Shown here piece by piece: positions 1 to 53,659 of a DNA stretch of 64,000 bases. The position numbers and the translations under genes are program-made. Under the pieces are notes generated by a model. That model saw only the letters and a list, made by a program, of their open reading frames with translations. It did no database searches and was not told the origin of the DNA. Position 1 is the first letter of the stretch. Every line of letters starts with the position of its first letter. The stretch is taken from the IMG/VR virus record IMGVR_UViG_3300013108_000188; one strand, given 5' to 3'. The DNA is from a virus.

Positions 1-549
1 GGTTGACTTCACTATTTGAGACCTTGTCATATCTCTAGTCTCTTTACCTTCTGCTGTATCTGTCATTTCTTTAGTTGTGGATAACATACCCAAACTATCT
101 AATACAAACATTATAGGTTTTCTTTTGTCTTCTGGACTCTCCAGATACTTGTCAACTATTTTAATTGATTGTGTTCTAAATTCTTGTACGGTTGAAACTG
201 GTACTACTACAAATCTTTTACTATCAATACCTCTATCTTCAATCATATTTTTAGATACAGCACTTTCACTTTCAAAGTAGATAACTCCTGCGTCTTTGTT
301 ATCATCTAAAAAGTGTTTGCATATTCCTAATGCAAAGAAAGTTTTACCTGTAGCGGCCTCACCTGCAATAGCAGTTATTTTATTACCAGGCATTCCGCCA
401 TATATACTTCCTGATAATAGAGCATTAAGAGAATAGCAACCTGTATCAACAAAACTTGATACATCGCCAGCGTCAACTCCTTCACTTGCTAATGTGGCAT
501 ATTCGTTGCCAGTTTCTTTTATAATGTCTTTTAAAAAATCATTTGTCAT
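1..549 (-). CDS. uvsX: UvsX RecA-like recombinase (5' part; runs off the left edge)
   Basis: Manual translation from ATG at 549: [18 protein letters not shown]...[38 protein letters not shown] (Walker A), then YFESESA and [15 protein letters not shown] upstream. Not in the ORF track because it is truncated. Confidence 0.95.
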
Positions 550-558
550 ATTTTCTCC

Positions 559-587
559 ATACTATCATATTATTAATTAGTTGTCAA
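559..587 (-). promoter_or_regulatory. sigma70-type early promoter for uvsX
   Basis: TTGACA-N17-TAGTAT with TG extended -10. Confidence 0.7.
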
Positions 588-903
588 CAGCCAACTTCTT
601 TCTGGTGAACATATTGAAATTAGATAGGTTTGTATATACTTCACCTTCTATTCTCAACGATTCATCTTTTGGTACCCAATCTTTTGGTGGGTCTTCGTAC
701 TCCTCTGGTCTGATTTTATCCCATAGGTGTACTTTAAATTCGGGTAGTGATACTGGTCCAAATTGGTCATAGATACGACCTTCAAAGTTCATTGCCATAT
801 CCATAACTTGTTCTCTATTATAGGCAACTTTTCTTTGATAATCATAATAAGGTTTTAAATCTTCGTAATCTTTTTTGTTTATGGCCATTCCTTTTCCTAA
901 CAT
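577..903 (-). CDS. hypothetical protein
   Basis: 108-aa ORF in line with its neighbours; true start may be the second Met (MAINKK). Confidence 0.7.
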   Translation of the reverse strand: MLGKGMAINKKDYEDLKPYYDYQRKVAYNREQVMDMAMNFEGRIYDQFGPVSLPEFKVHLWDKIRPEEYEDPPKDWVPKDESLRIEGEVYTNLSNFNMFTRKKLAVDN

Positions 904-2141
904 AAGAAATTCTCCAATGTCGCTTTTCTGCTTGACGCAAAGAAATCATAATCTTTTGGTCCGAAACACCATACATTTTCTATATATGTTTTGGACATAA
1001 AGTCAGCTTTTTCTCTATCATCTTTAAAAAGTTTATCGCTTTTAGGTCGTTGCATAATTCTCATACCGATTTGACCTAGAAACTTATCTCTATGTTTATT
1101 TATTAATTCATCACTTGACCTGTATCTAACATTTTTAACTTTAGGGTCCATAATATTAACTAACATAAACTTACTTTTACTTAATGTTTTTTCTGCAACT
1201 GGTAAATAGAAATCGTCTCTCCATCTTTCATATTCATTAAACTTAAACCAAGATTGATTTTCTTCTTTCTCTCCACCTTTGTTATATTCTTCTGTACTGA
1301 AATAAGGTGGACTTGTAAATGCACAATCTATATCTGGTAGTTCATTATAAGGTAAATCTTCTGCACCACAATTCCATATCTTAACTTTTTTGTTAGGAAA
1401 GATTTTACTATATTCTTCTATCTGTTTATGATATTGTTTATATGTGTTTGGGTTTGGGTCACAACCATAATATTCTGTTGCACTACTAGAAAAGAAACCA
1501 GCAAGTCTATCTCCCCAACCACAACTGGTATCTAATACGGTGTTCGCTTTTGTCATATCATATATTGTTTTAGCAACAAGTGGTTTAAATTGTGTTGCAA
1601 TATATGTACCTAATCTTATTGCTTCTCTATAACTTTTACCTGATAAATCTTTACTACTATTTACACCTCTCCATAATGCACCTAAAATTTTCCATATATC
1701 TTTTGCACTACCTTTTGTCCAAACATCAATTGGTGCTCTAAAACTATAACTTGAACAATTTAATCTTAAATGTTGATGAAAATAATTACTGCACTTATTA
1801 TAATAAGCAGGTGCGTCTATAATACCTAAACCATATTTTGAATATGGATGTTCATAGTCATCATATTTTTCACCTACAATTTTATCTGATTGGTCTTTAG
1901 GTGTACATATTTTACTTGTATCAAAATTACTTAATTGTATAATATTGTCTTTCATTTCCTGATATGAAATATTATTTAAAGGAAACTTTGGTCTGTAAGT
2001 AGCAATATATTCTGATAGTACTTCTCTAAATCTTTCCTTACCTAATTTTTCAGTCCATCTTTTAAACTGAATAGAATCCATAATAGGTAGACCATCTTCA
2101 TTAGCAAAATCTTTTAAATCCATCGTATATAAATCCATCAC
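897..2141 (-). CDS. amino-DNA methyltransferase (m6A/m4C type)
   Basis: SAM-binding motif VLDTSCGWGDR, then GCDPN, then catalytic FTSPPYF. Confidence 0.85.
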   Translation of the reverse strand: MMDLYTMDLKDFANEDGLPIMDSIQFKRWTEKLGKERFREVLSEYIATYRPKFPLNNISYQEMKDNIIQLSNFDTSKICTPKDQSDKIVGEKYDDYEHPYSKYGLGIIDAPAYYNKCSNYFHQHLRLNCSSYSFRAPIDVWTKGSAKDIWKILGALWRGVNSSKDLSGKSYREAIRLGTYIATQFKPLVAKTIYDMTKANTVLDTSCGWGDRLAGFFSSSATEYYGCDPNPNTYKQYHKQIEEYSKIFPNKKVKIWNCGAEDLPYNELPDIDCAFTSPPYFSTEEYNKGGEKEENQSWFKFNEYERWRDDFYLPVAEKTLSKSKFMLVNIMDPKVKNVRYRSSDELINKHRDKFLGQIGMRIMQRPKSDKLFKDDREKADFMSKTYIENVWCFGPKDYDFFASSRKATLENFLC

Positions 2142-7838: not shown

Positions 7839-8203
7839 TATATATTCTCCATATCTCTTAAATGAACAATCAAACCATTATGTTTAGGTGTTAAAATAAC
7901 TTGACAAGCTAACCTAGAATACATACGGTCATATTCAGGTTGCATTTCCATTAATTCTGTTTCTAAACTATTATGTTCAGCAGGACCTACTCTATTAATA
8001 TCTTCTTTTATATTAATATGACAAGTACCACACGCTTGACATCCTCCACAATCGGCAGGAATCTCATCAATGGAAGTATTAGCAAATTTCTTTGCCGCTT
8101 CCATAATTGTAAAACCTGGCGGTACTTTGACTTCTTGTTTTGTGCCGTCTTTACTTACAAAGTATATTGTCAAAGTATCCTTCTGTTGGATACTATCTGA
8201 CAT
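7838..8203 (-). CDS. [2Fe-2S] ferredoxin, adrenodoxin/ISC type
   Basis: CGGCQACGTCH...SRLACQ. Confidence 0.93.
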   Translation of the reverse strand: MSDSIQQKDTLTIYFVSKDGTKQEVKVPPGFTIMEAAKKFANTSIDEIPADCGGCQACGTCHINIKEDINRVGPAEHNSLETELMEMQPEYDRMYSRLACQVILTPKHNGLIVHLRDMENI

Positions 8204-8493
8204 TATGTTATTAATCCTGGTCCTTGAATAATTTTACTTACACTTTGTTTATAACTAGCAAGTAAGTCTTGTTTTGGTTCCACCGTTGTTAATATCTTGT
8301 CATCTGCAAAAGTAACCGTATCGGTTTCTGCATATGGGATATAAGTGAACATACCAAACTTCATTGACTTCCCTGCTTCGGGAGCACTTGTTGGATAAAT
8401 GATATATGGATTTTTGACAGAAGTTGTTCCGTCTTTTTTTGAAATTTCTCCGATAATATCTTCACCTGTTATTAGTCTTACTATTTTTACCAT
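8203..8493 (-). CDS. conserved T4-like hypothetical protein (Sm-like fold)
   Basis: VKIVRLITGEDII...KNP...PYA pattern, familiar from marine T4-like phages upstream of gp43. Confidence 0.7.
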   Translation of the reverse strand: MVKIVRLITGEDIIGEISKKDGTTSVKNPYIIYPTSAPEAGKSMKFGMFTYIPYAETDTVTFADDKILTTVEPKQDLLASYKQSVSKIIQGPGLIT

Positions 8494-8502: not shown

Positions 8503-8531
8503 ATTATATTATAATTGTTAGTCTTTGTCAA
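8503..8531 (-). promoter_or_regulatory. consensus sigma70 early promoter (ferredoxin/gp43 operon)
   Basis: TTGACA-N17-TATAAT. Confidence 0.8.
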
Positions 8532-9996
8532 TAGGCGGCAATCTCTTACTTAATACGAAAGTCCTACTAGGATTTACGCTAGCGTGAAACTGCCTAATCA
8601 TATCTCTATTTAACAAGACATCCGAACCTGACCTTGGTCTTTGGTCTAGTCCAAATTCTATATCTTTATAAGTAAACCCATTGAAAGTCATATCTAACAA
8701 TACGGTTTTTCTTATTTCGCTTGGTTCATCACCAGCGTTTGCTCTAAAAACTCTACTCTCTCCGTGAATTGGTTTAGTATATGTTTTCTTATTATACTTC
8801 CAACTTACCGTTTTACCTTTTATCTTAATATCTTCTGCGTGTAATGAACAAGCTTTAGCTCCATTACCTGTATCTAACTTGGCTCTTATCTTACCAATGT
8901 CTTCTAATTCTATTGTCTCTAACCAACCTGTTTCTATAATTGATTGTCTATCCCAATTACTTCTATCAGAAATATATTTAACAAAGTTTTTAACTAATTG
9001 TTTACCAGTAATTGCACCTCCAGGATTTGGTCCTTCAAGGTCTTTATATGCGTAACCTTCATAATCAGCACCAGTACCAGGAGAACCATTGACTTCAAGT
9101 ACATAGTACTTACCATCAACAATAATATGGTCTACTCCAACTACATATGCTTTACTAGCTCTACTAGCTTTTAAAATAATTTCTATTTCATCATCATTTA
9201 ATTTATAAGGTACTGCCTTAGCACCTCTATGTGTATTAGTTCTAAAATCAAAAGATGATTGTATTCTTTTTGTACTAGCAAATATCTTATTATCTGCTAC
9301 AAAAGTTCTTATATCAAATTTAACAGGCATAAATTCTTGTATTAATAATTCTGCTTCGTGTTTCCATAGTGATTGAATAGTAGATACAAGCGACTCATAA
9401 CTATCACATTTAACAACTCCGATACCTTGCGTACCTGTTAATGTTTTTAATACTACTGGAAACTTACCACCTATTAGTTTTACTGCGTCATCTATATTTT
9501 TTTCGTTAGATACGAAAGCAGTTCTAGGTGTTGGTATTGCAAACTTTTCAAATAATAATGCTGTTGTTAATTTATTATTACAAGTTAACATTGAGTTTCT
9601 TGTATTAATCATAAACGAACCAGAGTTTTGAAAAGCAGATATGATTGAAAGTCCTGCTTCATCTTCAACTGCACCTGCTCTAGTAATACAAATGGTGTCT
9701 CTACCAATAAATGTATGTTCAGTATCTTTACCATCATAGTTATAGATGGTTAAAGTATTCTTTTCTTCGTCTTTACCTGTTATGATTGCGTGTCTAGTTT
9801 CAATAACTATACACTTGATTTTCAATTCTTCGCAAGTCTCAGCAATCAGACCAACGGTTAATTCCTTTTTCTCCTTACCACCAACTTTTCTTTTTTTGAT
9901 GTTCGGATGAGTTTTGGTAACTACCGCTATCTGTATAGTTCTATCAGAACCTTTTTTTGCTTCGGTTATGAAATCTTTGAAATTTGATACTTGCAT
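8518..9996 (-). CDS. rimK: RimK-family ATP-grasp ligase fused to a retropepsin-like (RimB-like) protease domain
   Basis: NKL...PTPRT, PVVLKTLTGTQGIGV, IQEF, DIR, FRTNTHRG, GVD, LEVNGSPG; C-terminal GWLE...AKLDTGN...SLHA...VLLNRD. Confidence 0.9.
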   Translation of the reverse strand: MQVSNFKDFITEAKKGSDRTIQIAVVTKTHPNIKKRKVGGKEKKELTVGLIAETCEELKIKCIVIETRHAIITGKDEEKNTLTIYNYDGKDTEHTFIGRDTICITRAGAVEDEAGLSIISAFQNSGSFMINTRNSMLTCNNKLTTALLFEKFAIPTPRTAFVSNEKNIDDAVKLIGGKFPVVLKTLTGTQGIGVVKCDSYESLVSTIQSLWKHEAELLIQEFMPVKFDIRTFVADNKIFASTKRIQSSFDFRTNTHRGAKAVPYKLNDDEIEIILKASRASKAYVVGVDHIIVDGKYYVLEVNGSPGTGADYEGYAYKDLEGPNPGGAITGKQLVKNFVKYISDRSNWDRQSIIETGWLETIELEDIGKIRAKLDTGNGAKACSLHAEDIKIKGKTVSWKYNKKTYTKPIHGESRVFRANAGDEPSEIRKTVLLDMTFNGFTYKDIEFGLDQRPRSGSDVLLNRDMIRQFHASVNPSRTFVLSKRLPPIDKD

Positions 9997-10455
9997 TTAT
10001 TGACCTTCATTTTTACCTTCTTTGGAAACTTCTTCCTTCTTCTCATCAACTTTCTTACCAATGTTATATTTAGCAGAAAGTATCCATTCTTTCTTTTCTT
10101 TAAATGGTAATACTTTTATTTGAGATAAAGGCGCTTTGTTTTCAGCTGCCTCTTTTTTTACAATGGAAATAAGGTTCCAATCTGCTAGTAATACTGCGAT
10201 TGTATTTCTTCTTTGTATATCGTTTTCGGTCAATGTAGCTTTCTTACCATCTAAAGCAAATAGTTCTTTGAAGTGAACAATGTAATATTTGCCTTGTTTA
10301 TGTAATATATGGCAAGATTGAAATAGTGTTTTGTCTTTCCTAGACGCCACGCCTATTCTTGTTAAAGTCTCTCTAACTTTAAGAAAGTCGTCAGGTTGCT
10401 TGATTGTTACCTCTAGCATATCATCTGGCGACCAGTTTAATGTGTCTGTCGTCAT
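9997..10455 (-). CDS. regA: RegA translational repressor
   Basis: DDFLKVRETLTRIGVASRK...QSCHILHKQGKYYIVHFKELFALDG. Confidence 0.97.
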   Translation of the reverse strand: MTTDTLNWSPDDMLEVTIKQPDDFLKVRETLTRIGVASRKDKTLFQSCHILHKQGKYYIVHFKELFALDGKKATLTENDIQRRNTIAVLLADWNLISIVKKEAAENKAPLSQIKVLPFKEKKEWILSAKYNIGKKVDEKKEEVSKEGKNEGQ

Positions 10456-12521: not shown

Positions 12522-12550
12522 ATTATATTATAGTGTGTGTCGTTTGTCAA
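12522..12550 (-). promoter_or_regulatory. consensus sigma70 early promoter (gp45 operon)
   Basis: TTGACA-N17-TATAAT. Confidence 0.8.
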
Positions 12551-13120: not shown

Positions 13121-13149
13121 AATATAACATAATCTATAAAAGAAGTCAA
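13121..13149 (-). promoter_or_regulatory. sigma70-type promoter for peroxiredoxin
   Basis: TTGACT-N17-TATATT with TG extended -10. Confidence 0.65.
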
Positions 13150-13174
13150 TAGGCCGTGGTTTATTACGGCCTAT
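13136..13174 (-). terminator. intrinsic terminator after hsp20
   Basis: 9-bp stem ATAGGCCGT/ACGGCCTAT followed by an interrupted T-rich tract. Confidence 0.65.
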
Positions 13175-13222
13175 CAACATTTAGCTAATTAGCGAAGCTA
13201 AAACGCCACTCCGCTGTATTAC

Positions 13223-13963: not shown

Positions 13964-14167
13964 TTAATATCCTCTTTGAGCCATCAGCTTTTTCTTATTT
14001 TTTAAGAAAGCTCTAGTCATTTCTTTTTTCTTACGATTCTTTTTGTCGCAAGGTTTTTCATAATATTGACGCTGACGCAGTTCTTTTAATCTGCCATCTT
14101 TCTGGAGTTTCTTCTTTAAAACTCTCATTGCTTGCTCAACATTATTATTTCTAACTACTACTAACAA
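13964..14167 (-). CDS. rpsU: 30S ribosomal protein bS21
   Basis: VVVRNNNVEQAMRVLKKKLQKDG...RQYYEKP; TTG start with GGAGG SD. Confidence 0.95.
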   Translation of the reverse strand: MLVVVRNNNVEQAMRVLKKKLQKDGRLKELRQRQYYEKPCDKKNRKKKEMTRAFLKNKKKLMAQRGY

Positions 14168-14181
14168 CTTTATTACCTCCT

Positions 14182-33106: not shown

Positions 33107-33114
33107 TATTTATA
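33107..33114 (-). promoter_or_regulatory. T4-type late promoter (gp3)
   Basis: TATAAATA. Confidence 0.75.
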
Positions 33115-33128
33115 TGAGTTTTTAAACG

Positions 33129-33163
33129 AAAAAAAAGGCGAGATTTTTTAGGTCTCGCCTTTT
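33129..33163 (-). terminator. intrinsic terminator after the major capsid gene
   Basis: AAAAGGCGAGA/TCTCGCCTTTT stem with a T8 tail. Confidence 0.9.
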
Positions 33164-33202
33164 CTTATATCAGTTTACAGATAATATAGTTATTAATTGC
33201 AA

Positions 33203-34540
33203 TTACGCAAGGTTAACAACTTGTACTTTTCTGTAGTATCTGTTAGAGTTAGCAGCACCAGCACCATCAATCACAGCGTCAGAAGAAGCACTAGCTTCAG
33301 CAAAAGGATTTGCCTGTAAGCCGTATCTTGTTTTGAAACCGATTTTTGGTTGGAAAGTGTCTTGGCCAACTGCTCTAACCATTTGTAAAGGTACATATGG
33401 GCAATAGAACATACCAGCGTCATAAGGAGAAGTTCCTTTATAACCAACTACATAAAATTGTTTAGCAGCTTGGTTTGCTGAGTAAGGGTCTATATACACT
33501 TTAAATCTACCGTTAAGAACACCAGCAAAAGTATTGCCTGTGTCATCAACATTTAGATTATTGTTAAGTGCAGGAGCATAGTCAAGGATGCCAGCCATTT
33601 GAAGAGCAGAAGCAACATCAGAAGAACAAACGATTATGTTCCCTTTACCTCTTCTGGTTCTTTGAGCAACAGCGTTAGCGTCTCTCTCTAATTGGAACAT
33701 TAAACCTTTAAATCTCTCAACTGACCATCTACCGTTAGAGTCTGTATCTAAATCAAAGATTCCAGCGTTAGTTGTGTCCGTTTGAGCACCTTTTTCTGAA
33801 TTAATGTAAATTGTTCTAACAACTTCTCTATTAATTTCAGCAAGGATTTCAGCAGATAAGATGTTCGCTAATTCTGTTTCAGCGTCTAATCCGTGAATTG
33901 CTTTAAGGTCTTGTGCAAGTTCCATTGTATATTCTGCTTTAAGAGCTCTACTTTTCGCAGTTACCGTTGATTTCTCAATTGAGAAAGCCATTTCAGCAAA
34001 AGCGTTTCCAGCAGAATCTCCAAGTGCTTCAGCACTAGCAGTCGCCATACCTGAACCAGAAGTATAAGTTCCAGCAGGTGAGTCGTTTAATATACCAGGG
34101 TTGTTTTGAGCAGGTGAATTTGAAGAAGTACCAGCACTTCCAGGAATGTTTGCGTTAGCAGCGTTTCCAGAAAATTTAGATTCAGCTTCGTCAAATAATG
34201 CTTCAGTTCCGCCTTGAGTTTTGTATCTGCTTCTCATTGCGAATATAAGTCCAGTAGGTCCGCTCATAGGTTGTACACCAGCAATATCGTAAGCGATAAG
34301 GTTTGGCATAGCTCGTCTAACTAAACTAATTAGGATTGGATCCCAGTTAGCAATGTTAGCACCTGTAGCGTTGGCAGGAGCCGCTTCGGCCATAAATTGA
34401 GCGTCTTCTTTAAGCGCTCTTTCTTGGTTTTCCAAGATAACCGAGGTTACAGCTCTTTTGTAGCTATCGCTGATTTTTGGTAAATCAGGATGGTCTAATA
34501 CTGGCTGCCATTTTTTTTGGTAGTTTTCAGATAAATACAT
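33203..34540 (-). CDS. gp23: major capsid protein (gp23)
   Basis: KWQPVLDH, GVQPMSGPTGLIFAMR, RALKAEYTMELAQDLKAIHGLDAE, FQPKIGFKTRYG. Confidence 0.99.
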   Translation of the reverse strand: MYLSENYQKKWQPVLDHPDLPKISDSYKRAVTSVILENQERALKEDAQFMAEAAPANATGANIANWDPILISLVRRAMPNLIAYDIAGVQPMSGPTGLIFAMRSRYKTQGGTEALFDEAESKFSGNAANANIPGSAGTSSNSPAQNNPGILNDSPAGTYTSGSGMATASAEALGDSAGNAFAEMAFSIEKSTVTAKSRALKAEYTMELAQDLKAIHGLDAETELANILSAEILAEINREVVRTIYINSEKGAQTDTTNAGIFDLDTDSNGRWSVERFKGLMFQLERDANAVAQRTRRGKGNIIVCSSDVASALQMAGILDYAPALNNNLNVDDTGNTFAGVLNGRFKVYIDPYSANQAAKQFYVVGYKGTSPYDAGMFYCPYVPLQMVRAVGQDTFQPKIGFKTRYGLQANPFAEASASSDAVIDGAGAANSNRYYRKVQVVNLA

Positions 34541-34561
34541 ATCTTTTTCCTCTCTCTATTA

Positions 34562-35722
34562 TTATTTTACAGACAACTTAATGTCTTTAGTTTTACTAAT
34601 AGCGGTAGTATAAGCAGCCATTGCATTAGACAAATCTTTTGAATCTACTTCATTTGATTGTCCAGCTACCGCATTATCTACTTCGCTGTCAGAATTCGCT
34701 TCTTTTTTATTTCCAAAATATGATTCTTTAATAGTCTCACATTTTTTCTTAAAAGTTTCAGCGTCGGAATACTCAACTTCTTCTGTAAGTTTAGCAAATT
34801 TTTCTTTAGAAGTATCTGCTAAGTCAGAAGCAACATCAGCTAAAATGTCAGCTCTCTCAAGCATATTGCTTTTCTTATTCAATTCAACATTTTTTCCGAT
34901 TTCTTCGTTAAGTTTCTTCTCCAGTTCCTCAATCTTTGAGGCCTGGTCTTCTAACACATCATATTTTTCATCAGGTACATCAATATAGTGGTCTTCAAAA
35001 AGTTTTTTCAGACCGTTAATGAAGTCCTCAGCAATCTCTCCCTTGATACCTTTTTCAATAGCAAGTTCGTTTTCTTTCATCCACTCATTGACAACATAGT
35101 TCAAATAATTGTCTACCTTTTCAACAAGTTCTGATTTTTGCTTAGTACTTTCAGTTTCAAATTTTTTATTATAATCTGCTTCCATTGATTCTTCTATCTC
35201 TCTAACTTTAGATTTGATAGCAGCTTCAAATATAGTAGCAGCTTTGGCTTTAAATTCTTCTGACAAGTCTTTTTCTCCAGAGGTTAAAGCGTCAATGTGT
35301 TCTTTTACATCAACATCTTTTGCTTTCTGGTCATCTTTTTCCTCAGACTTGACTTCATCATCTTTAGATACTTTAACTTCAGCGTCTTTAGATTCTTTTT
35401 TGTCGTCTTTCTTATCTAGGAATTTTTTTAGACCGTCAGGCATTTCTCCCTCGGAAATCTTCTTGCCTTCAGAATCAGTTTCTTTCTCTTCACCTTTAAG
35501 AGTAGGCATAGCGTCAGCTTTACCTTGATTCTTTTGAGGTGCTTGTCCAGAAACTTCTTTTGTGCTTGCGTTAGCTTTAGGATTTTCGTCTGTAGGTTTA
35601 ACTACAGCTTTACCTAAATCCTCAGCGTCATTTTTCAATGGCGTTGGCTCAGCGGCTACAGCGTTCTTTTTAGGAGCGTCTGCTACCGTGTTTTCACTAA
35701 CACTTTTTTCTGTTTCGGCCAT
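34562..35722 (-). CDS. gp22: prohead core scaffold (gp22)
   Basis: LSEEFKAKAATIFEAA, VDNYLNYVVNEWM; synteny. Confidence 0.95.
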   Translation of the reverse strand: MAETEKSVSENTVADAPKKNAVAAEPTPLKNDAEDLGKAVVKPTDENPKANASTKEVSGQAPQKNQGKADAMPTLKGEEKETDSEGKKISEGEMPDGLKKFLDKKDDKKESKDAEVKVSKDDEVKSEEKDDQKAKDVDVKEHIDALTSGEKDLSEEFKAKAATIFEAAIKSKVREIEESMEADYNKKFETESTKQKSELVEKVDNYLNYVVNEWMKENELAIEKGIKGEIAEDFINGLKKLFEDHYIDVPDEKYDVLEDQASKIEELEKKLNEEIGKNVELNKKSNMLERADILADVASDLADTSKEKFAKLTEEVEYSDAETFKKKCETIKESYFGNKKEANSDSEVDNAVAGQSNEVDSKDLSNAMAAYTTAISKTKDIKLSVK

Positions 35723-35773
35723 ATGAAGTTCTCCTTAATTTAAAAAAATAATTATTTTCTTTTCTTTGCTAGA

Positions 35774-35781
35774 TATTTATA
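35774..35781 (-). promoter_or_regulatory. T4-type late promoter (gp22)
   Basis: TATAAATA. Confidence 0.75.
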
Positions 35782-36435
35782 CTAATACAATCCTTTAAGG
35801 AACGATTCAAAGACTTCCGCCTTTGCTTCTGCGATTTTTAGTCGTTTTGCCTCTTGGATGTACTCTTTATATTCTTCTAGCTCTTTTTGTTTAATGACAC
35901 CATTATCCCATATCCACTCTTTTCCTTCCATAATTCCTTCTACGAAAGCGTCTGGAGCTGATGGATCTGCAACAATGTCAGCGGCAGTAGCAAGATAAAA
36001 GTCTTGTCCGACCTGTGCCTCACCGTTTCTACCTCTTTGTAATGAACCCATACCACGACTAGATACGCCTAATTTAGCGCCTTCATCTATAAGATTTTTT
36101 ACAATCTTTCCGTATGGAGTATCCATAACTTTTGCTTCTCCGATGAAGTTATTTCCATCTGGATATAGTTTAGTTATCATATGTGATACTCTTTCCAAGT
36201 TTACCGTTGGTCCGTCAGGATGTCCTAACTCGCCAAAAGCTCTCTTCTGTTCAACAAATTCTCTATTATATCTACTTACTTCTTTTGATAAAGTTTCCTT
36301 TGGATAGACTCTACCGTTTCTATTTTTAATTTCTGATTGTAAGAATACTCCACGGATTTTGTAGTTTTTGCCACCTTGTCCGTTATCTTCTTTAATGTAT
36401 TCTACATTATCTATTGCTTCTGTTATGAGTTTCAT
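35782..36435 (-). CDS. gp21: prohead protease (gp21)
   Basis: MKLITE, NRNGRVYP, GELGHP, GVSSRGMGS, DIVADPSAPDA. Confidence 0.98.
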   Translation of the reverse strand: MKLITEAIDNVEYIKEDNGQGGKNYKIRGVFLQSEIKNRNGRVYPKETLSKEVSRYNREFVEQKRAFGELGHPDGPTVNLERVSHMITKLYPDGNNFIGEAKVMDTPYGKIVKNLIDEGAKLGVSSRGMGSLQRGRNGEAQVGQDFYLATAADIVADPSAPDAFVEGIMEGKEWIWDNGVIKQKELEEYKEYIQEAKRLKIAEAKAEVFESFLKGLY

Positions 36436-36459
36436 TAGTCTATCTCTCTCTTTCCTTAA

Positions 36460-36467
36460 TATTTATA
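36460..36467 (-). promoter_or_regulatory. T4-type late promoter (gp21)
   Basis: TATAAATA. Confidence 0.75.
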
Positions 36468-36474
36468 CATTTTA

Positions 36475-36870
36475 TTATCTAAATTCAACAATCAATGTGT
36501 AATTGTCGTGTAAAGCAAAGTTTTTAGTTGACAAATATACATAACCAGTAGCACCAGTAGCGTTATTAGCTATATCATTTCCTGCAGTTCTAAAGTCAAA
36601 AACTCCATTTCCTGATAATACAAGTGCTGTTGTGTTGGCAGAAGAACCTCCCCAGGATATCTCTACTGCCGATTTTGAGTTTGCTGTATTAATTGAATAC
36701 CAGACTTTAGCAATAGTCTTGGTACCATCTGTTGTCATAAAATTAGATGTTGTCGGATTAACTAACACACTATCAGTTTCACCAGTACCATCACTTATGT
36801 TTGTTCTCTTAACAACATATTTTACGCCTGCTGTATCTGATACTATTTGCGTTGTTATTGCGTCTGCCAT
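36475..36870 (-). CDS. putative virion protein (head module)
   Basis: 131-aa beta-rich protein between gp20 and gp21. Confidence 0.6.
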   Translation of the reverse strand: MADAITTQIVSDTAGVKYVVKRTNISDGTGETDSVLVNPTTSNFMTTDGTKTIAKVWYSINTANSKSAVEISWGGSSANTTALVLSGNGVFDFRTAGNDIANNATGATGYVYLSTKNFALHDNYTLIVEFR

Positions 36871-36880
36871 TTTTTATCCT

Positions 36881-37252
36881 CTAACTATTTGGTCCTAATT
36901 CTGTTTCTTTTTGTACTTCTACTGCCAAGTCAAACTTACTAACTTCTTTATCAGCAGAAACTTTTAATTCAGTAGCCGTATCTAATTTTTGGTCTATAAC
37001 CTTTCGTGCTTCTCCTTCTTTTAATCCCCAATTACCAAACCTTTCTAAAACTAAAGTTTGGTCTCCGAGTGTAAGAGTCACTTTTGGATAGATTTCATTT
37101 TCGTAATCATTTCCTCTTATCTCATAATATACATTCGCTAATGATATACTCTTGTCGGAGCTAAATAAAGTTCCGCTATCTTCGCCTACACCACTAGCAG
37201 TTATAATTGCCTTATTGGTGTCATCAACTTTTGTATTGACAACTAAAGTCAT
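36881..37252 (-). CDS. putative virion protein, likely paralog of 36475..36870
   Basis: Shared pattern G.GE...L...(I/L)A.V.Y.I...V....LVL...G.(W/F). Confidence 0.55.
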   Translation of the reverse strand: MTLVVNTKVDDTNKAIITASGVGEDSGTLFSSDKSISLANVYYEIRGNDYENEIYPKVTLTLGDQTLVLERFGNWGLKEGEARKVIDQKLDTATELKVSADKEVSKFDLAVEVQKETELGPNS

Positions 37253-37257
37253 ATTTC

Positions 37258-37494
37258 TTACTCTTCAAAGTATGCTTTAATATCTGACTCAACAACTCCC
37301 GTTGCCGCCGCTACTTCAGCTACTTTAGTTTCAATAATGCTAACCAAATCTTGTGGTTGCGACCAATCAACACCATCTAAAGATTCAATTAATTGTTTAA
37401 CTGCTTCTTTCATTGATGGTGAAAGATTTATATATTTGTCGTTACCGATAAAACCTGATACATTACCAACTATACTTGATACCGTTAATGCCAT
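37258..37494 (-). CDS. hypothetical head-module protein
   Basis: 78 aa with GGAG SD; synteny. Confidence 0.65.
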   Translation of the reverse strand: MALTVSSIVGNVSGFIGNDKYINLSPSMKEAVKQLIESLDGVDWSQPQDLVSIIETKVAEVAAATGVVESDIKAYFEE

Positions 37495-37508
37495 TTTTTA
37501 TTCTCCTG

Positions 37509-37895
37509 TTAATTACTTTGTTCTGAACCAGAATCAGCAGGTGCTTCTGCAGGTGCTGTTTCGGCAGGTGCCGTATCAGCAGGTGTAGCATTAGCAGCTC
37601 CATCTGGCGTCATTGCTGTTTGTACATCATCCCTTGTTGCAGTCTGAGCAATCGGATCAGCCACTTCTGGTTTAGGATCCGAGTGAGGTTCTGCCTGTCC
37701 AGGCGTTTGTGTCATAACATCCCTAGCAGCGTTAAATAGATTACTCGCATAATCTTTTCTGCTAGCATCCAAAGCGTCACCAACTTTATTTCTTAATGCG
37801 TCTTTAAATGCTTCACCAGCACTTTTGTTATCACCACTTGCAAGTTTATCAACAAACTTTTCTGTATCTGTCTGTTTTGTTTCATTATCAGCCAT
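37509..37895 (-). CDS. prohead core protein (gp67-like)
   Basis: Immediately downstream of the portal; helical N-terminus and acidic Ala/Pro-rich tail. Confidence 0.6.
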   Translation of the reverse strand: MADNETKQTDTEKFVDKLASGDNKSAGEAFKDALRNKVGDALDASRKDYASNLFNAARDVMTQTPGQAEPHSDPKPEVADPIAQTATRDDVQTAMTPDGAANATPADTAPAETAPAEAPADSGSEQSN

Positions 37896-37904
37896 ATTTT
37901 TCTC

Positions 37905-39428
37905 CTATATTATATCAGGTTCATCACCAGAAACCTGAACGGTTGGACTGGATATGATACCATCATTTATTTCTTTCTTAATTTGTTTGTCTATATCAGC
38001 TATTTCTCTTTCAGATTGTTTAAGTATATTTTGTCTAACATACTTAACTGAAAAGTATTTACCAACATAGTCTCGTACATCATTTGCCAACATTATTCTT
38101 TCTTTTAATAATTCAGCATTTTTCAGTTCCGAGAAGTGACCATCAGCAAGAAAATCATATTTAATTTTCTCTTTGACATTCACCCAATCGTCTTCGTTTA
38201 TGATTGCCTTTAAAACTAATTGTGTTCTCAGCAAATCATTAAACAATTCTGTAAATTTCTTACGCAATCTTTGTACAAATTTTGTAAATTTAAGTTCGTC
38301 TCTAGTAATCTCGGTACTTCTACCTAGATTGAATCCTTGACTTGCTTCTAATCTACTAATAGGTACATTAAGCGAACGGTATAGTTTTCTTTGGAAGTAT
38401 TCTATATCCGCAACTTCGCCTAAATTTTGACCACCAGGTAAAGTGGAAATATCAGTTCCTCTTCCACCTTCTCTACTTGGTAACCAAAAGTCTTCAAGCA
38501 TAGACATATAGTTTCTGTCGTCTCTAATTTCTCCAGTACTTGCGTCATAGACAAGTTTGTTTCTGTATCTTGCCATTACATCACGCAAATATTGTTCTGC
38601 TTTTACTTTAGGTAAATTACCTACATCAATTTTAAAAATTCTTCTTTCAGGTGCTCTTGCAATTCTGTATATAACAACAGCGTCTTCAATCATTCTTAAT
38701 TGATTGACAGGTTTAATTGCTTTGTGCATATAAGACATAACCATATTCTTATTCAAATCAACTAAACCACTTGGACAAAAAGTAATAGCGTCTGTAGCAA
38801 TTTTTAATCCACCACTTGCCATTCCTGGTCCTGCAACACCTTTTTCATTATATAAAAAGTATTCGTTATAATCGTGTATGACCTGAATATTTGCTAATGG
38901 TACAGGTCTACCTTTTTTAATTTCTCTTATCTTCTTAATTTTTCTCGGGTCAATATATCTTAATTCTGTAATACCCTTAATTGGAGATTCTCTATCAATT
39001 ATTTTATGATAGTAAATTCTTCCATCTACATACCATCTACGAAATATATCGTGTCCTTTCGTAGAAAAGTTTAGAAGTCTTAAAACTTCTTTAAATTCAT
39101 CTTCAACTTTTCTTTTAATGTTATCAGAAAAGTTTGTATCTTTTAAATCTACTCTAACTGGATCTTTCTCAATCTCGTTTGCAACAATAGCTTCGTTGAC
39201 TATATCTTCAACTGCCATATCGCATTCTGGATGTATTGAAATTTCCCTATACCTACGAATTAAGTCTTGCTCAGTTTTTGCAGTACCTTCCATATCAAGG
39301 TACTGACCAAAATAACCTCCAGCGGCGACGGTTTGTGTACCGTCATCCGCTTTAGGTTGTGTAAAACTTTGTTTCGGGTCTGGAGTTTGCTTAACTCTAG
39401 TTATTTGGAAACCGAAAAGTTCTGCCAT
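37905..39428 (-). CDS. gp20: portal protein (gp20)
   Basis: FRRWYVDGR, YRIARAPERRIF.IDVGNLP, EDFWLPSREGGRGT, ITRDELKF. Confidence 0.99.
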   Translation of the reverse strand: MAELFGFQITRVKQTPDPKQSFTQPKADDGTQTVAAGGYFGQYLDMEGTAKTEQDLIRRYREISIHPECDMAVEDIVNEAIVANEIEKDPVRVDLKDTNFSDNIKRKVEDEFKEVLRLLNFSTKGHDIFRRWYVDGRIYYHKIIDRESPIKGITELRYIDPRKIKKIREIKKGRPVPLANIQVIHDYNEYFLYNEKGVAGPGMASGGLKIATDAITFCPSGLVDLNKNMVMSYMHKAIKPVNQLRMIEDAVVIYRIARAPERRIFKIDVGNLPKVKAEQYLRDVMARYRNKLVYDASTGEIRDDRNYMSMLEDFWLPSREGGRGTDISTLPGGQNLGEVADIEYFQRKLYRSLNVPISRLEASQGFNLGRSTEITRDELKFTKFVQRLRKKFTELFNDLLRTQLVLKAIINEDDWVNVKEKIKYDFLADGHFSELKNAELLKERIMLANDVRDYVGKYFSVKYVRQNILKQSEREIADIDKQIKKEINDGIISSPTVQVSGDEPDII

Positions 39429-39456
39429 TTTATATCCTCACTTTATTTGTACTAAT

Positions 39457-39464
39457 TATTTATT
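39457..39464 (-). promoter_or_regulatory. late promoter variant (gp20)
   Basis: AATAAATA. Confidence 0.55.
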
Positions 39465-39470
39465 CAACTA

Positions 39471-39998
39471 TTAAGTAGTCGTTCTCGCTTCAAAATTTAG
39501 GTATCTAAACGAAACATCAAAAGTCTCAACAGCATCCGTTGGTGCCATATCTAACTCAATACTACTTACGGATATTGGAAAACATCCTCTCATAGTATAA
39601 GATTTAATAGTAGCGCCATTTCTGTCAAGGTGGTCAATAAATGCGTCAACTTGATAATCAACAGGATTTGTTAATCCTTCGTTATCTGACATATTATTAA
39701 TACCATTTTGCCATCTTTCAAATGCGTCTCTTAATCTAAAGTTTGTATCGTTAAGTACCGTAATATCCCAAGCTTCAAATGTTCTATCACCTGCTAAGTA
39801 TATTGGTCTACCACGGAAATTAACCGTTGTAAGTCCAAGTGTCATAGCTGGAATAGTAGTAGTTTGTACTAGGAACGCCAGTTCTTCTGTTTCTCCACCA
39901 ACTTGTGCGTAACCAGGAAAAGGCATAGTTACCTTAAACTGGTTCTTACGAGCTCCGCCGCCTGCAAGTTTGGTTTTGAAGTCATTTATGTTTGCCAT
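39471..39998 (-). CDS. gp19: tail tube protein (gp19)
   Basis: GGGAR.NQF, FRGR...AGDRTF, LDRNG. Confidence 0.96.
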   Translation of the reverse strand: MANINDFKTKLAGGGARKNQFKVTMPFPGYAQVGGETEELAFLVQTTTIPAMTLGLTTVNFRGRPIYLAGDRTFEAWDITVLNDTNFRLRDAFERWQNGINNMSDNEGLTNPVDYQVDAFIDHLDRNGATIKSYTMRGCFPISVSSIELDMAPTDAVETFDVSFRYLNFEARTTT

Positions 39999-40021
39999 TT
40001 TTTATTTCTCCTCTTTACCTA

Positions 40022-41962
40022 TTAACCTGCGACTTCTTCAAAAGCCACGCCAGTTCTCGTTGCAACGAAAGATAATGTGATAAAGTTAATGCTTCTTGCT
40101 GGTTTAATATAAATCTCAGCAATGAATTCATTTCTATCAATTACTTCGCCTGTGTTGTTAGTTTCATCACACACTACTAAAAAGTCTGTGATACCTCGTC
40201 TACCTTGTACTTCTCTTAAAAAAGGTTCTACCATATTTCTAAAACCAGCTCTAGTGAACTCATCGTTGAATTCAAATAGTTGGAATTTAGAAGCAGTAGC
40301 GATTGCCTTCTCTAATACGATAAACAATTTTCTGACATTGATTCTGTCAAACGCAGATGGAGTAGTTAATCCAGTTTTATCTCCAAACAAGATAATACCT
40401 TGTCCAGGGAATGAAACAACAGGATTGATTCTAGCTCTATATAACTCGTCTCTTTGAGTTTTATTAGGACTATATGCCAATTTAACAGCACCTCTAATAA
40501 TACCTCTATTTAATCCAGCAGGACTAAACCAAGGATCGTTAGTTAGGTCTGTTCTAGCACATAAGCCAGCCATATCTCCGTTTAGTGGAACATATCTATA
40601 GACATCGTTATATCTGTCGTATGTATATTTGTAACCACTATCAAAAACTATGTAAGATGATGAACGAATTGTATTAAAAAATGCTAATACATTTTTCGTT
40701 TGTGTTATCGCAGAAGTGATGTTTACTACATCGGACCTTTCAGGACTAGCGAACACTACACAATCTTTTCTTTGTTCAGCGATTGTAATTAAATCACCGA
40801 TTAAAGCAGCGGAAGCGTTTCCAGCCATTATTAATCCAACATCAACCGTTTCTGAATCAGCAAATTTTTCAAACGCAGTCTTTCTTGCTCCATCAGTAAC
40901 CGTACCATCTACACCACCAGCGAAGGTTAGTGCGATAGGAGCGGTAACATCTGTATAAGCAGAAGTAGCTGCTGTTTTAGAATCTCCCCAATTAGTTCCG
41001 TTTGAGTTGTGGTCTCCCCAATAGATGAAAGATGATTTTCTGTAAATAACTTCTGCATAGAAATTATTTGAACCACCTGCATCCTTGGCGTCTTTTGCCT
41101 TTGATACTTTTTCGTATATCTCTAATACTTCGTCTTTAGTACCGTTTACTGAACCGTCTGCATCCACAACAACCAAGTGTAGCTCGTCATTACTTCTTCC
41201 TGCTTTTTCAACATCTGGAGATGTTCCAGGTGCTCCATTTACTTGGTCATAATATTGCCATCTTCGTCTTACATTAGCACCGTTTGGACAGATTGCTCCA
41301 AGTCCACCAGTACCTACTTTTTTCTTAAATGTAATATCGTTAGATGAAACATTAGTAACCTCGTATTCTAGGCCGTCATCATAGTCGTTAGTTCCTGCCG
41401 TAGATGAGAAAGATATAATGTCACCAACACCAATGTTGGTTCCACTTGCTACCGTGATTTGTGTATCGCCTACTGCTACAGCTGAATCAGAAACCGTGGT
41501 TACGCCTTCTGTTTCATAAGCAGTCGCTGAAGGACAAACAGATACTTTTAATCCATTACCCCAAGCTCCCGCTGTTCTAGCAGCAAACTCAATGCCAGAG
41601 ATTCCTGTGTAAGCACCATCCGCTAAGTATGTAGAACTATAATGATCCGTGTGTCGGATCAATAGTGCTGTACCTGAATTGGTTACAGCGTTTTTTATAC
41701 CAGTATTTTCTGTTCGTACAACTTTTAGGGCATTGGAATACTGAAGGAAAGATGAAGCAGTAAAATACTCTTCAAAGTTGCTTGCAGTTGGTTTTCCAAA
41801 AACACTAACAAAATCTTGTTCAGAAGAGATAAGTGTTACCTCTCCTACTGGACCTCTTGTAGAATTGAAAGCATATGCTCCAATACTAGTAGATACAGCT
41901 GGGATTATATTAGTTAAATCCTTTTCTTGTACGAGAACTCCTGGTGATACTTGAAATGCCAT
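40022..41962 (-). CDS. gp18: contractile tail sheath (gp18)
   Basis: SPGVLVQEKD, WFSPAGLNRG, FDRINVRKLF, FEFNDEFTR, KPARSINFI. Confidence 0.98.
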   Translation of the reverse strand: MAFQVSPGVLVQEKDLTNIIPAVSTSIGAYAFNSTRGPVGEVTLISSEQDFVSVFGKPTASNFEEYFTASSFLQYSNALKVVRTENTGIKNAVTNSGTALLIRHTDHYSSTYLADGAYTGISGIEFAARTAGAWGNGLKVSVCPSATAYETEGVTTVSDSAVAVGDTQITVASGTNIGVGDIISFSSTAGTNDYDDGLEYEVTNVSSNDITFKKKVGTGGLGAICPNGANVRRRWQYYDQVNGAPGTSPDVEKAGRSNDELHLVVVDADGSVNGTKDEVLEIYEKVSKAKDAKDAGGSNNFYAEVIYRKSSFIYWGDHNSNGTNWGDSKTAATSAYTDVTAPIALTFAGGVDGTVTDGARKTAFEKFADSETVDVGLIMAGNASAALIGDLITIAEQRKDCVVFASPERSDVVNITSAITQTKNVLAFFNTIRSSSYIVFDSGYKYTYDRYNDVYRYVPLNGDMAGLCARTDLTNDPWFSPAGLNRGIIRGAVKLAYSPNKTQRDELYRARINPVVSFPGQGIILFGDKTGLTTPSAFDRINVRKLFIVLEKAIATASKFQLFEFNDEFTRAGFRNMVEPFLREVQGRRGITDFLVVCDETNNTGEVIDRNEFIAEIYIKPARSINFITLSFVATRTGVAFEEVAG

Positions 41963-42077
41963 TAGGTTTTCTCCTCTTTATTATTTGTTTTTGTATTTAA
42001 ATTTAAATACATAATTTACCTTATTGTTCAAAAGTCGTATTATTCATACGCCCATATTCAAATTTCTCAATTGCTTA

Positions 42078-42085
42078 TATTTATG
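42078..42085 (-). promoter_or_regulatory. late promoter variant (gp18)
   Basis: CATAAATA in the intergenic gap. Confidence 0.55.
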
Positions 42086-42101
42086 ATTAACCAAATCTAT
42101 A

Positions 42102-43739
42102 CTATTGTCCTTTGCGTACTACAGGATGCCAGACCGTTCCATATTCATCTACGGTCGGTTTGTCTTCCTCTTTGGTTATACCATCATCTACAAAGCCAAA
42201 AGGTGCCATATCTTGCTCTATTAACTTCTCTTGCTCTTTGTACATTTCTGCTCGTATGTTTCTGTCTGTCATTTCCTTAAAAAACCTTTGATTTGCAACC
42301 CAACCAAGTATAACCAGACAGGTCATATAGTCGTCATTGCAACCTTCTTCTGCCTGCCAAGATTGATTTTTTCGGGTATAAGTAGACATTTCTTCTATGA
42401 TATTGAAGTCATTTATAATCAGTTTATCACTTTCTATAATTGATTTTATATTAGCAGTACCCATTTTCTTTACCTGTTTTGTCATCCGAACACCTAATTG
42501 GCTTCCTCTTTGACTGAACATAGCACCTAGGATTTGACCTGCTCTACCTTTTTGTGTAGTCATTAATACATTTGGATACTCAATTTCAAAATGTAGTCCA
42601 TCTGAAATCTGAGCGCCTATATCATTTACTTCAACAAGTATATGTGCATTGTCATATTGCTTACATACTTTAGCAATCATTTCTGGAAATAACATAGGTT
42701 TAATTTCATTGTCTCTAAATGTAGCAACCACTCTATAAGGTAAGTTGGTTACATCATAAACAATAAATGCTGAATAATCTTTTAGTGTACCTCTGGCAAC
42801 ATCAACCGTACATAGGTATGTGTTGCCTTTTACAGGTTCTTCAAAGATACTTAATCTACCATTTGTTTTAAGTGGTGTAATATACGGTGTCGCTTTTATT
42901 TTTGAGGCAGCTATTAATGTATCTATACTACCTAAAAATTCACACTCAAACTCACTAGCAAATTGTGCTTCCGATGTATTTCTAATTGTTTCTTCTTTCC
43001 ATTTTGCGTCTCTACCTGGTACTTCTGACCAATGTACTTCTAATGGAATATAATTATTTTTTCCGTTCTCACTATCTATCCATAGTTTATAAAACTGATT
43101 CATTCCGTGTGGAGTTGATACTATAATTACTTTAGTTGATTTACCAGAAGTAATTGTAGGATAAACGGAACTAAAAAATTGTTCGGCAATCGTTGTAGGT
43201 ACGAAAGCAAACTCGTCAAGGAATATTATATTATATGAACCACCTCGGACAGCACTTGAAGATGTAGCGGCCGCAACTATTTTACTTCCATTTTCTAATT
43301 CAATATTACCTTTGTTCCAATTTAATACACCTTGTTGTAACCATTTAGGTAAGTTTTCATAAGCTAGTTGTAATCTTCCCAATATATCTCTAGCAGTAGA
43401 AGATTTATTGGCAAGAATCGCTATACTTGAATTGGGATTAAATAACGCATAATGTAATAAGTAAGATATGATAGTTGTAGATTTACCACTTTGTCTAGGT
43501 AGTTTATAGATTGAAAACCTATTGTTGTGCATAGTATCAATCATCTTATCTTGGAATTTATAAGTTGTAAAAGGAACCAAACCTTCATCAAGCGATACAA
43601 TCTTTACATAGTTTTTAATAAAGTATAATGGGTCTCCACTACACTTCGCAAACTCCTCAACCTGTTCTTTTGTGAACTCGGATTGAACACCTGATTTTTT
43701 TAGATTAGGATTACCTAAATATGCGTCATTAGTTATCAT
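42102..43739 (-). CDS. gp17: terminase large subunit (gp17)
   Basis: YLGNPNLK, PRQSGKST, LDEFAF, STPHG, DVARG, DDY. Confidence 0.98.
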   Translation of the reverse strand: MITNDAYLGNPNLKKSGVQSEFTKEQVEEFAKCSGDPLYFIKNYVKIVSLDEGLVPFTTYKFQDKMIDTMHNNRFSIYKLPRQSGKSTTIISYLLHYALFNPNSSIAILANKSSTARDILGRLQLAYENLPKWLQQGVLNWNKGNIELENGSKIVAAATSSSAVRGGSYNIIFLDEFAFVPTTIAEQFFSSVYPTITSGKSTKVIIVSTPHGMNQFYKLWIDSENGKNNYIPLEVHWSEVPGRDAKWKEETIRNTSEAQFASEFECEFLGSIDTLIAASKIKATPYITPLKTNGRLSIFEEPVKGNTYLCTVDVARGTLKDYSAFIVYDVTNLPYRVVATFRDNEIKPMLFPEMIAKVCKQYDNAHILVEVNDIGAQISDGLHFEIEYPNVLMTTQKGRAGQILGAMFSQRGSQLGVRMTKQVKKMGTANIKSIIESDKLIINDFNIIEEMSTYTRKNQSWQAEEGCNDDYMTCLVILGWVANQRFFKEMTDRNIRAEMYKEQEKLIEQDMAPFGFVDDGITKEEDKPTVDEYGTVWHPVVRKGQ

Positions 43740-44894: not shown

Positions 44895-44909
44895 TATATC
44901 CTCTCATTA

Positions 44910-46561: not shown

Positions 46562-46568
46562 TGTATTT

Positions 46569-47372: not shown

Positions 47373-47398
47373 AGTTATTTCCTTCTAATTCTTTGCTA

Positions 47399-47406
47399 TA
47401 TTTATA
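47399..47406 (-). promoter_or_regulatory. T4-type late promoter (gp13)
   Basis: TATAAATA. Confidence 0.75.
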
Positions 47407-47408
47407 AT

Positions 47409-47588
47409 TTATAGATAATCGTTTCGGTTACTCCAGTCCGCTTTATCATCTTTTTTATCATAGTACCAAGAAAATAACGATATAATTAGTGCAAATAATA
47501 TAATTCCTTGTATAAAAGGTTCGTGTTTTAGGCAATATATTAGGACATCTAATCCATTTCCACCGTCAGCTATAATTTTATCTATCAT
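47409..47588 (-). CDS. 59-aa membrane peptide at the end of the tetrapyrrole cassette
   Basis: [59 protein letters not shown]; overlaps the ALA synthase stop. Confidence 0.65.
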
Positions 47589-50945: not shown

Positions 50946-50995
50946 TTTTCACTCCAAGTTTTTATATAGTGACCTTTAAAAGGTCTATAATATAG

Positions 50996-53199: not shown

Positions 53200-53226
53200 A
53201 TTACTCTTTCCTTAATACTTAATTAA

Positions 53227-53658: not shown

Positions 53659-53659
53659 A

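Follow-up and report, generated by a model that had tools for sequence, protein, structure and literature searches.

Results

A RimK-peptidase fusion gene behind regA

We analysed a gene that encodes a RimK-type glutamate ligase fused to a retropepsin-like peptidase, together with the short leader at its N-terminus, in a 64,000-nucleotide stretch of viral DNA (IMG/VR record IMGVR_UViG_3300013108_000188; hereafter the window, meaning this whole stretch). The window derives from an uncultured T4-like pelagimyophage; it has 32.8% G+C and carries nearly all genes on the minus strand. Its source is a marine T4-like phage of SAR11-type bacteria; the closest isolates are the Pelagibacter phages Mosig EXVC030M and HTVC008M, the former sharing 72% nucleotide identity with the window over 70% of the queried replication region. 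Around the fusion the gene order is gp45, gp44, gp62, regA, RimK fusion, DUF6561 protein, 2Fe-2S ferredoxin and gp43 (coordinates are collected in Table 1), and regA likewise precedes RimK in Mosig and in the related loci L031 and L078. The regA gene ends one base from the ATG of the fusion, its stop codon abutting the ATG in the window; in relatives the two genes overlap.

Such genes are widespread. Among 8000 candidates scored, 1067 homologues of the fusion were found at E <= 1e-5, some of the listed 90%-identity clusters contain hundreds of member sequences, and RimK genes adjoining regA are very common in ocean viromes. An initial sequence-only reading of this DNA had presented the fusion as new, which it is not: Monier, Claverie and Ogata described RimK flanked by regA in T4-like marine Global Ocean Sampling contigs in 2008, noted that several of these phage RimK proteins carry a C-terminal DUF785 (= PF05618), and proposed modification of ribosomal protein S6 (PMC2530865). 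The window fusion belongs to the same gene family and lies in the same regA context. Their report contains neither the assignment of the second domain as a retropepsin-like peptidase of glutamate tails, nor the leader, nor the idea of packaging (PMC2530865).

Two catalytic domains in one protein

The open reading frame (ORF), the Pfam matches, the conserved catalytic residues and an AlphaFold model agree that a RimK domain is fused to a retropepsin-like domain, as first proposed from the sequence. The ligase part matches PF08443 at 4.5e-36 (amino acids (aa) 140-308) and reaches 141.1 bits against TIGR00768 (aa 46-307), just under the cut-off of 143.4; against the S6-ligase equivalog NF007764 it scores 97 bits, with a cut-off of 331. 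By its sequence the domain is a divergent member of the family and not an equivalog of E. coli RimK. As a single sequence, the C-terminal part matches PF05618 at 1.8e-6 (28.4 bits for a cut-off of 27, aa 357-483) and gives weak matches to the RloA1-3 models of NCBIfam, and the family profile retrieves the retropepsin-like chains 9g59, 9g58 and 2pma at 1.7e-17 to 6.7e-15.

Residue conservation was followed in 57 homologues reaching down to 27% identity. In the ligase, K142, K184, Q220, R252, D289 and E301 are invariant and N303 nearly so; from general knowledge of ATP-grasp enzymes, we take these to be the residues that bind ATP and magnesium. The peptidase domain contains AKLDTG at aa 372-377, within which K-L-D-T-G-N (aa 373-378) is a motif of the hydrophobic-hydrophobic-D-T/S-G type of retropepsin-like peptidases. 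Here D375, G377 and N378 are invariant, and T376 is kept in at least 90% of the homologues. The AlphaFold model of the fusion has a mean predicted local distance difference test (pLDDT) score of 87 and a predicted template modelling (TM) score of 0.81. Its top Foldseek matches in the PDB are 7qys, 5zct and 4iwx, the Pseudomonas and E. coli RimK structures being the best, with target-normalised TM scores of 0.77-0.85 against RimK structures to which the fusion is just 23-26% identical.

In Pseudomonas, RimB is a retropepsin-like peptidase that strips glutamates from polyglutamylated S6 and stimulates RimK (PMC11957791), and the logic of a writer combined with an eraser has been established there by experiment (PMC7343187, PMC11957791). 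A 2025 study characterised cellular RimB-RimK hybrids and found a natural hybrid enzyme to be active (PMC11957791). The cellular RimK/RimB (RimABK) system and this hybrid have the same two catalytic domains as the window fusion (PMC7343187, PMC11957791). Since both the RimK ligase and the RimB-type peptidase are recognised in the phage protein, 'writer plus eraser', the label first given to it, is fair as a description of the domains. The predicted activities are those of an ATP-grasp ligase for alpha-linked glutamate and of a peptidase that trims such tails. The phage enzyme differs from its cellular counterparts in domain order (ligase first, whereas the peptidase comes first in the characterised hybrid), in having no RimA or cyclic di-GMP partner, unlike the RimABK module, and in an N-terminal extension of 20 residues, which is absent from cellular RimK.

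A conserved leader under selection at the protein level

The extension begins with a 12-residue leader. The sequence-only reading had singled out F..F(I/L).E as a motif to compare between phage and cellular RimK, and the comparison bears it out: all 120 close phage homologues (62-95% identity) have M-x-x-x-x-F-[KR]-[DE]-[FY]-[IL]-x-E, and cellular RimK has no leader extension, as the alignment of Pseudomonas RimK begins only at profile position 23 (with its residue 5). Column entropy is 0.07 bits at F6 and 0.0 bits at E12. The mean is 0.81 bits over residues 1-12, 1.56 bits over the linker (residues 13-21), where the protein varies most, and 0.74 bits over the whole protein. Further out, [FYW]xx[FYW][ILVMF]xE is found within the first 28 residues in 17 of 57 deep representatives (<= 50% mutual identity), compared with 0.22 expected from composition-preserving shuffles (at most 2 in 1000 shuffles); some deep homologues start at the first strand, without any extension.

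Both synonymous codons are used at F6 (TTT 22, TTC 7), at F9 and at E12 (GAA 24, GAG 5), and the substitutions seen in the leader are conservative (F/Y, I/L, D/E, K/R). Because synonymous codons vary at conserved residues, selection acts on the leader at the level of the protein. In the AlphaFold model, residues 1-17 have a pLDDT below 50, a short helix (residues 7-15) is unpacked, and the first strand spans aa 22-27. The RimK of the Methylophilales phage Melnitz has no protease domain and follows regA, and it carries such an extension (TQKFSQFITEE); the RimK of cyanophage S-RIM12 lies elsewhere in its own genome and has none. We are highly confident that the leader is a functional, portable N-terminal signal.

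Resemblance to T4 capsid-targeting sequences and gp21 cleavage sites

In the T4 record, the internal proteins IPII and IPIII begin with MKTYQEFIAE followed by A, and IPI with MKTFKEF...ITE followed by A. In IPIII, residues 4 and 7 are the main determinants of targeting, and residues 8 and 10 those of processing (PMC9026906). Positions F6, F/Y9, I/L10 and E12 of the phage leader correspond to Y4, F7, I8 and E10 of IPIII, the four functional positions of this capsid-targeting sequence (CTS), and the pair of aromatics at i and i+3 is conserved in the family. Another T4 head protein, Alt, is cleaved at ITE-6 (PMC5694885).

The maturation site of the major capsid protein gp23 aligns as SFLTE(65)/A in T4, QFMAE/A in the window, AFLSE/A in Mosig and GFLTE/T in C48C1, with F and E invariant across the four. 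The leader, DFITE/A (I10-T11-E12, then A13), has the same aromatic-aliphatic-x-Glu pattern as the gp23 site of its own phage. The capsid-processing machinery is encoded in the window, as an S77 prohead protease and a gp22-type scaffold. The window gp21 itself starts with MKLITE followed by A, aligned with T4 gp21 (LLIE-9), and the gp22 scaffold contains many [IL]xE sites.

Exchange of the enzyme body at the leader boundary

In contig L078 the flanks on both sides of the RimK fusion are 91-92% identical to the window at the nucleotide level, and the enzyme body between them is of the Mosig type, with 32% protein identity to that of the window. Nucleotide identity breaks off at window position 9961, where codon 12 ends, and returns 16 nucleotides short of the stop. 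The two loci thus differ by an allele exchange (window 8534..9961 versus L078:3739-5138), one junction lying at codon 12 and the other some 5 codons ahead of the stop. In T-even phages, internal proteins likewise combine a conserved leader with an exchangeable body (PMC3012670).

Leaders on other genes

No other leader-bearing gene was found in the 64-kb window, in 74 related loci or in the whole genome of Mosig; shared leaders occur only in a variable cluster between gp41 and gp61, which lies outside the window. Contig L101, which is identical to window positions 1..2138 (UvsX and the two preceding ORFs), continues past the window start and contains this cluster as seven consecutive, unrelated genes after gp41. 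Residue 4 is aromatic in six of the seven, and four begin with a T4-type leader, compared with none of the 63 genes of the window (Fisher p about 4e-5); a NATAAATA late promoter at L101 6252 directly precedes the cluster.

Homologous clusters are present in HTVC008M (L094) and in C48C1 (L090). In HTVC008M the N-termini of the gp41-gp61 cluster include MKSFKDF, MKTFTDFST, MRTYRAF and MKTLKELL, of which MKTFTDFST (gp143) resembles the MKTFKEFTST of T4 IPI. The isolate C48C1 (Kyanoviridae) has 6 leader ORFs where 0.16 are expected, 5 of them within 11 kb. In L081-L086 the RimK fusion itself is located inside such a cluster and has the exact T4 spacing (MRNFSNFLSEA). Three metagenomic representatives join RimK to further domains: P0135 combines DUF6267, a cytidylyltransferase-like domain, RimK and PF05618, P0133 an HxGH nucleotidyltransferase, RimK, PF05618, DUF5824 and DUF3140, and P0240 a PARP/exotoxin-A-like ADP-ribosyltransferase and RimK behind the leader MKTMQQVLSEA. 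As each has a single CTS-like leader, these three may be polyproteins. Homologues of the cluster enzymes in cyanophage Syn1 have no leader, so the leader is an add-on and not part of the enzyme folds.

Promoters and predicted expression timing

A late-promoter-like site, GCTAAATA, had been noted upstream of the fusion in the sequence-only reading. We rejected it as a late promoter: it consists of RegA codons and matches NNTAAATA only, which has 50 copies on the coding strand and 51 on the other. It also falls short of the standard set by the phage itself. Judged by motif and position, late promoters are clearly recognisable in the window phage: the coding strand has 14 copies of NATAAATA, the opposite strand 2, and 11 of these 14 lie in intergenic spacers directly before structural genes. 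The exact form TATAAATA is found at 8 sites (33107..61029, minus strand), all on the coding strand and 6-65 nucleotides before a gene start, 7 of them ahead of genes of the structural region and 1 ahead of hsp20, which makes a clean late-promoter set. No NATAAATA is present between gp45 and the RimK fusion, nor within 200 nucleotides upstream of the fusion in 65 related loci.

A perfect sigma70-type promoter lies before gp45, and an intrinsic terminator stands between the late-promoter-driven hsp20 and the early operon of peroxiredoxin and gp45, isolating the operon from the hsp20 promoter. Given this promoter and the terminator that cuts off the late hsp20 promoter, the RimK fusion is predicted to be an early/middle gene of the operon 45-44-62-regA-rimK. 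An early promoter is no argument against packaging, because the ip genes of T4 have such promoters too: in the T4 record, each of ipI, ipII and ipIII is preceded by an early-type promoter (GTTTAC...TATA), and none has a TATAAATA within 130 nucleotides. Strictly early expression, which had been put forward as an observation that would refute packaging, is thus not a valid refutation. A second perfect TTGACA-17-TATAAT (8503..8531, minus strand) extends over the final codons of the RimK fusion and precedes the DUF6561 gene (8203..8493), so that the genes downstream of the fusion probably have their own early promoter.

Table 1. Features of the RimK-fusion locus, the capsid genes and the related L101 cluster. 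Positions are those of the window unless the contig is given.
Feature	Position	Strand	Evidence or remark
RimK-peptidase fusion gene	8518..9996	(-)	one ORF of 492 aa, starts MQVSNFKDFITEAK, with N-terminal leader
Leader MQVSNFKDFITE, codons 1-12	9961..9996	(-)	predicted gp21 cut after E12
Variable linker, codons 13-21	9934..9960	(-)	between leader and first ligase strand
RimK-type alpha-L-glutamate ligase (pre-ATP-grasp and ATP-grasp), about aa 22-320	9037..9933	(-)	profile matches, invariant residues, Foldseek
Retropepsin-like (RimB / PF05618) peptidase domain, about aa 355-485	8542..8934	(-)	PF05618, family profile
Catalytic D375-T376-G377 of the peptidase domain	8866..8874	(-)	conservation in 57 homologues
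regA translational repressor	9997..10455	(-)	PF01818 6e-47; directly upstream of the RimK fusion
GCTAAATA, rejected as late promoter	10074..10067	(-)	71-78 nucleotides upstream of the RimK fusion; encodes RegA Ala-Lys-Tyr
sigma70-type promoter TTGACA-17-TATAAT before gp45	12550..12522	(-)	12/12 match; predicted early operon promoter
Strong intrinsic terminator	13178..13145	(-)	13-bp stem, 6 G-C pairs
Ribosomal protein bS21, phage-encoded	13967..14173	(-)	PF01165 1.2e-16; tblastn with Mosig S21
gp23 maturation site F49-M50-A51-E52, then A53	34385..34396	(-)	alignment of gp23 N-termini
gp22 T4-type scaffolding core	34562..35722	(-)	PF25623 3.3e-72; presumed docking partner of the leader
gp21 prohead serine protease (S77)	35782..36435	(-)	PF03420 7.8e-35; presumed processing enzyme
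L101 seven-gene cluster after gp41	L101:6327-12349		consecutive unrelated genes
L101 cluster, N-terminus MFSFKGY			ligase-like DUF6267
L101 cluster, N-terminus MKTYEEKSAE			small protein, no assigned function
L101 cluster, N-terminus MKTFRNFYEQQLLE			adenylate-kinase-like
L101 cluster, N-terminus MKQFKQVIQE			P-loop kinase
L101 cluster, N-terminus MIFRFKNFIKE			nucleotidyltransferase and cytidylyltransferase-like
L101 cluster, N-terminus MTRYTKSMRE			no assigned function

Discussion

The proposal that the N-terminus of the RimK fusion is a T4-type capsid-targeting sequence with a gp21 cleavage site is strongly backed by our analysis, the evidence for it being comparative: conservation, disorder, the match to the CTS, and modularity. 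We lean towards reading the leader as a capsid-targeting propeptide processed by gp21. This reading is well supported and, as far as the searchable literature shows, unpublished; our search for capsid-targeting sequences in cyanophages returned the T4 review only. The likeness to T4 has several layers. As in IPI, IPII, IPIII and Alt, two aromatics three residues apart are followed by an aliphatic-x-Glu cut site and an alanine. As in the T4 internal proteins, the body behind the conserved leader is hypervariable and is exchanged at the leader boundary, and the accompanying parts of the system (early-type promoters, S77 protease and gp22-type scaffold) correspond as well. Alt offers a precedent for a large host-modifying enzyme that is carried in the head. 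The differences lie in the cargo, here a 55-kDa two-domain enzyme with no sequence homology to T4 internal proteins past the leader, and in the standing of packaging and cleavage, which are established in T4 and predicted for the marine T4-like phages.

Put together, these observations suggest a packaged, gp21-matured and injected two-domain glutamylation enzyme with a T4-type leader, a model in which our belief and our doubt are about evenly balanced. Expression of the enzyme would come from the early/middle replication operon (45-44-62-regA-rimK), with translation coupled to that of regA. The ligase of the enzyme would add alpha-linked glutamates to a carboxyl terminus and its RimB-type peptidase would trim the tails, while the first 12 residues would serve as a separate, portable leader, as on the T4 internal proteins and Alt. 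The two aromatics might dock the enzyme to the scaffolding core of the prohead, where gp21 would cut after I-T-E, before the alanine, so that a mature enzyme starting at A13 is freed inside the head. At the next infection it would be delivered into the host cell along with the DNA and would be at work ahead of all phage gene expression. Of these steps, we infer packaging, cleavage, injection and the substrate.

Several points weigh against packaging. The aromatics of the window leader are at residues 6 and 9 and those of T4 at 4 and 7 (the exact 4/7 spacing is found in the homologues P0138, P0157 and P0184), and the position that follows the predicted cut varies strongly, with Q, T, A, K and E all occurring there in the family. 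The fusion has no late promoter, is situated in the replication module, and is the sole leader-bearing gene in the complete genome of Mosig. Because RimK functions as a tetramer and retropepsins as dimers, the head would have to take up a 55-kDa oligomer, which would need to unfold before it could be ejected. We found no virion proteome of any pelagimyophage, and the only experimental hint is a weak one. It comes from Yersinia phage YerA41, whose gp066 (with its homologue in vB_Yru_GN1) is a full-length RimK and retropepsin-like fusion, 32% identical to the window protein over 78% of the query, and is labelled 'structural protein' from liquid chromatography-tandem mass spectrometry of particles. 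We do not accept this annotation as proof of packaging, as the preparation contained 63 proteins, including DNA polymerases, helicases and ribonucleotide reductase. YerA41 is moreover an unrelated phage, with hypermodified DNA and multisubunit RNA polymerases, and the N-terminus of its homologue differs from the window leader.

Alternatively, the enzyme may stay inside the cell and never be packaged, taking part in early/middle host takeover, with the leader being another kind of short linear motif. Such a motif might dock a partner (the ribosome, RegA or another enzyme of the kit discussed below), control stability, or hold together a multi-enzyme complex of leader-bearing proteins. We consider this a serious possibility that falls short of being probable. 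It sits well with the place of the gene in an early replication operon behind a perfect sigma70-type promoter and without a late one, with the lack of any other leader-bearing gene in Mosig, with an aromatic pair two residues off that of T4, and with the modification of S6 inside the cell that was proposed in 2008 (PMC2530865). The first of these loses force, however, with the early promoters that also precede the T4 ip genes. What an intracellular role leaves unexplained is why the leader and the gp23 maturation site of the phage have a common F-[ILM]-x-E ending, and why the conserved positions coincide with the four that are functional in the T4 CTS (PMC9026906).

Another thought is that the N-terminus is conserved on account of the mRNA, as a RegA operator or as a translational-coupling or initiation region after regA. 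The initiation regions bound by T4 RegA are rich in A/U, as are the leader codons, and the gene always follows regA, abutting or overlapping its stop. Nevertheless, an explanation at the RNA level is largely ruled out by the codon data, as both synonymous codons are used at invariant residues and replacements are conservative at the protein level. Furthermore, the same peptide motif is found on genes far from regA in L083, C48C1, HTVC008M and L101, and we regard a constraint of this kind as very improbable.

Wherever the enzyme acts, its substrate is a separate question. That S6 is the main target is doubtful in our view. That the ligase acts on something other than S6 we hold to be equally doubtful; the options would be another host or phage protein, free poly-alpha-glutamate whose chain length is tuned by the peptidase, or a pathway with the nucleotidyltransferase and ligase-like enzymes that are fused to RimK in other phages. 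A target other than S6 agrees with the scores below both the S6-ligase equivalog and the RimK-family cut-offs, and with the profile matches to MptN, CofF and LysX, RimK-family enzymes that glutamylate cofactors and carrier proteins. It agrees as well with the fusions of RimK to DUF6267, to a cytidylyltransferase-like domain and to an ADP-ribosyltransferase, and with the stimulation of free poly-glutamate synthesis by RimB (PMC11957791). A further point in its favour is that none of the window proteins ends in Glu-Glu, the ending by which phage substrates were sought. On the other hand, the closest solved structures and profiles are those of bona fide S6-modifying RimK enzymes, and ribosome-directed functions would be in character for a phage that carries bS21 and RegA. 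The bS21 gene is located about 4 kb upstream of the RimK fusion, so the phage also touches the 30S subunit by this route.

In YerA41 (L002), a small protein annotated as LysW-like (9778-10158) is encoded 4 kb away from the RimK-retropepsin fusion (4719-6140). LysW is a carrier protein glutamylated by the RimK-family enzyme LysX, and the LysW-like protein of YerA41 may therefore be a dedicated substrate of its RimK fusion.

The fusion as such was already known; by sequence, the leader hypothesis covers not just this protein but a whole group of enzymes encoded by marine T4-like phages. We put forward, tentatively and as a possibility short of likely, that marine T4-like phages of heterotrophs (pelagimyophages, Melnitz, C48C1 and uncultured relatives) inject a leader-loaded enzyme kit. 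It would comprise the poly-glutamylation writer and eraser, a ligase-like enzyme, kinases, nucleotidyltransferases and, in some phages, an ADP-ribosyltransferase.

For the phage RimK beside regA, described in 2008, the T4-type leader now gives a concrete prediction, namely a processed N-terminus in virions. Should capsid targeting fail as an explanation, the leader would still be a conserved, portable signal common to unrelated phage enzymes. If it holds, capsid targeting, a mechanism so far known in T-even coliphages alone, would be present in the marine branch of the family as well, and candidate injected effectors could be identified from sequence alone. The RimK fusion would be the first injected enzyme that rewrites the tail of a ribosomal (or other host) protein at infection, and host translation, or another target of glutamylation, would be modified before any phage gene expression, in what are some of the most abundant phage-host pairs of the ocean.

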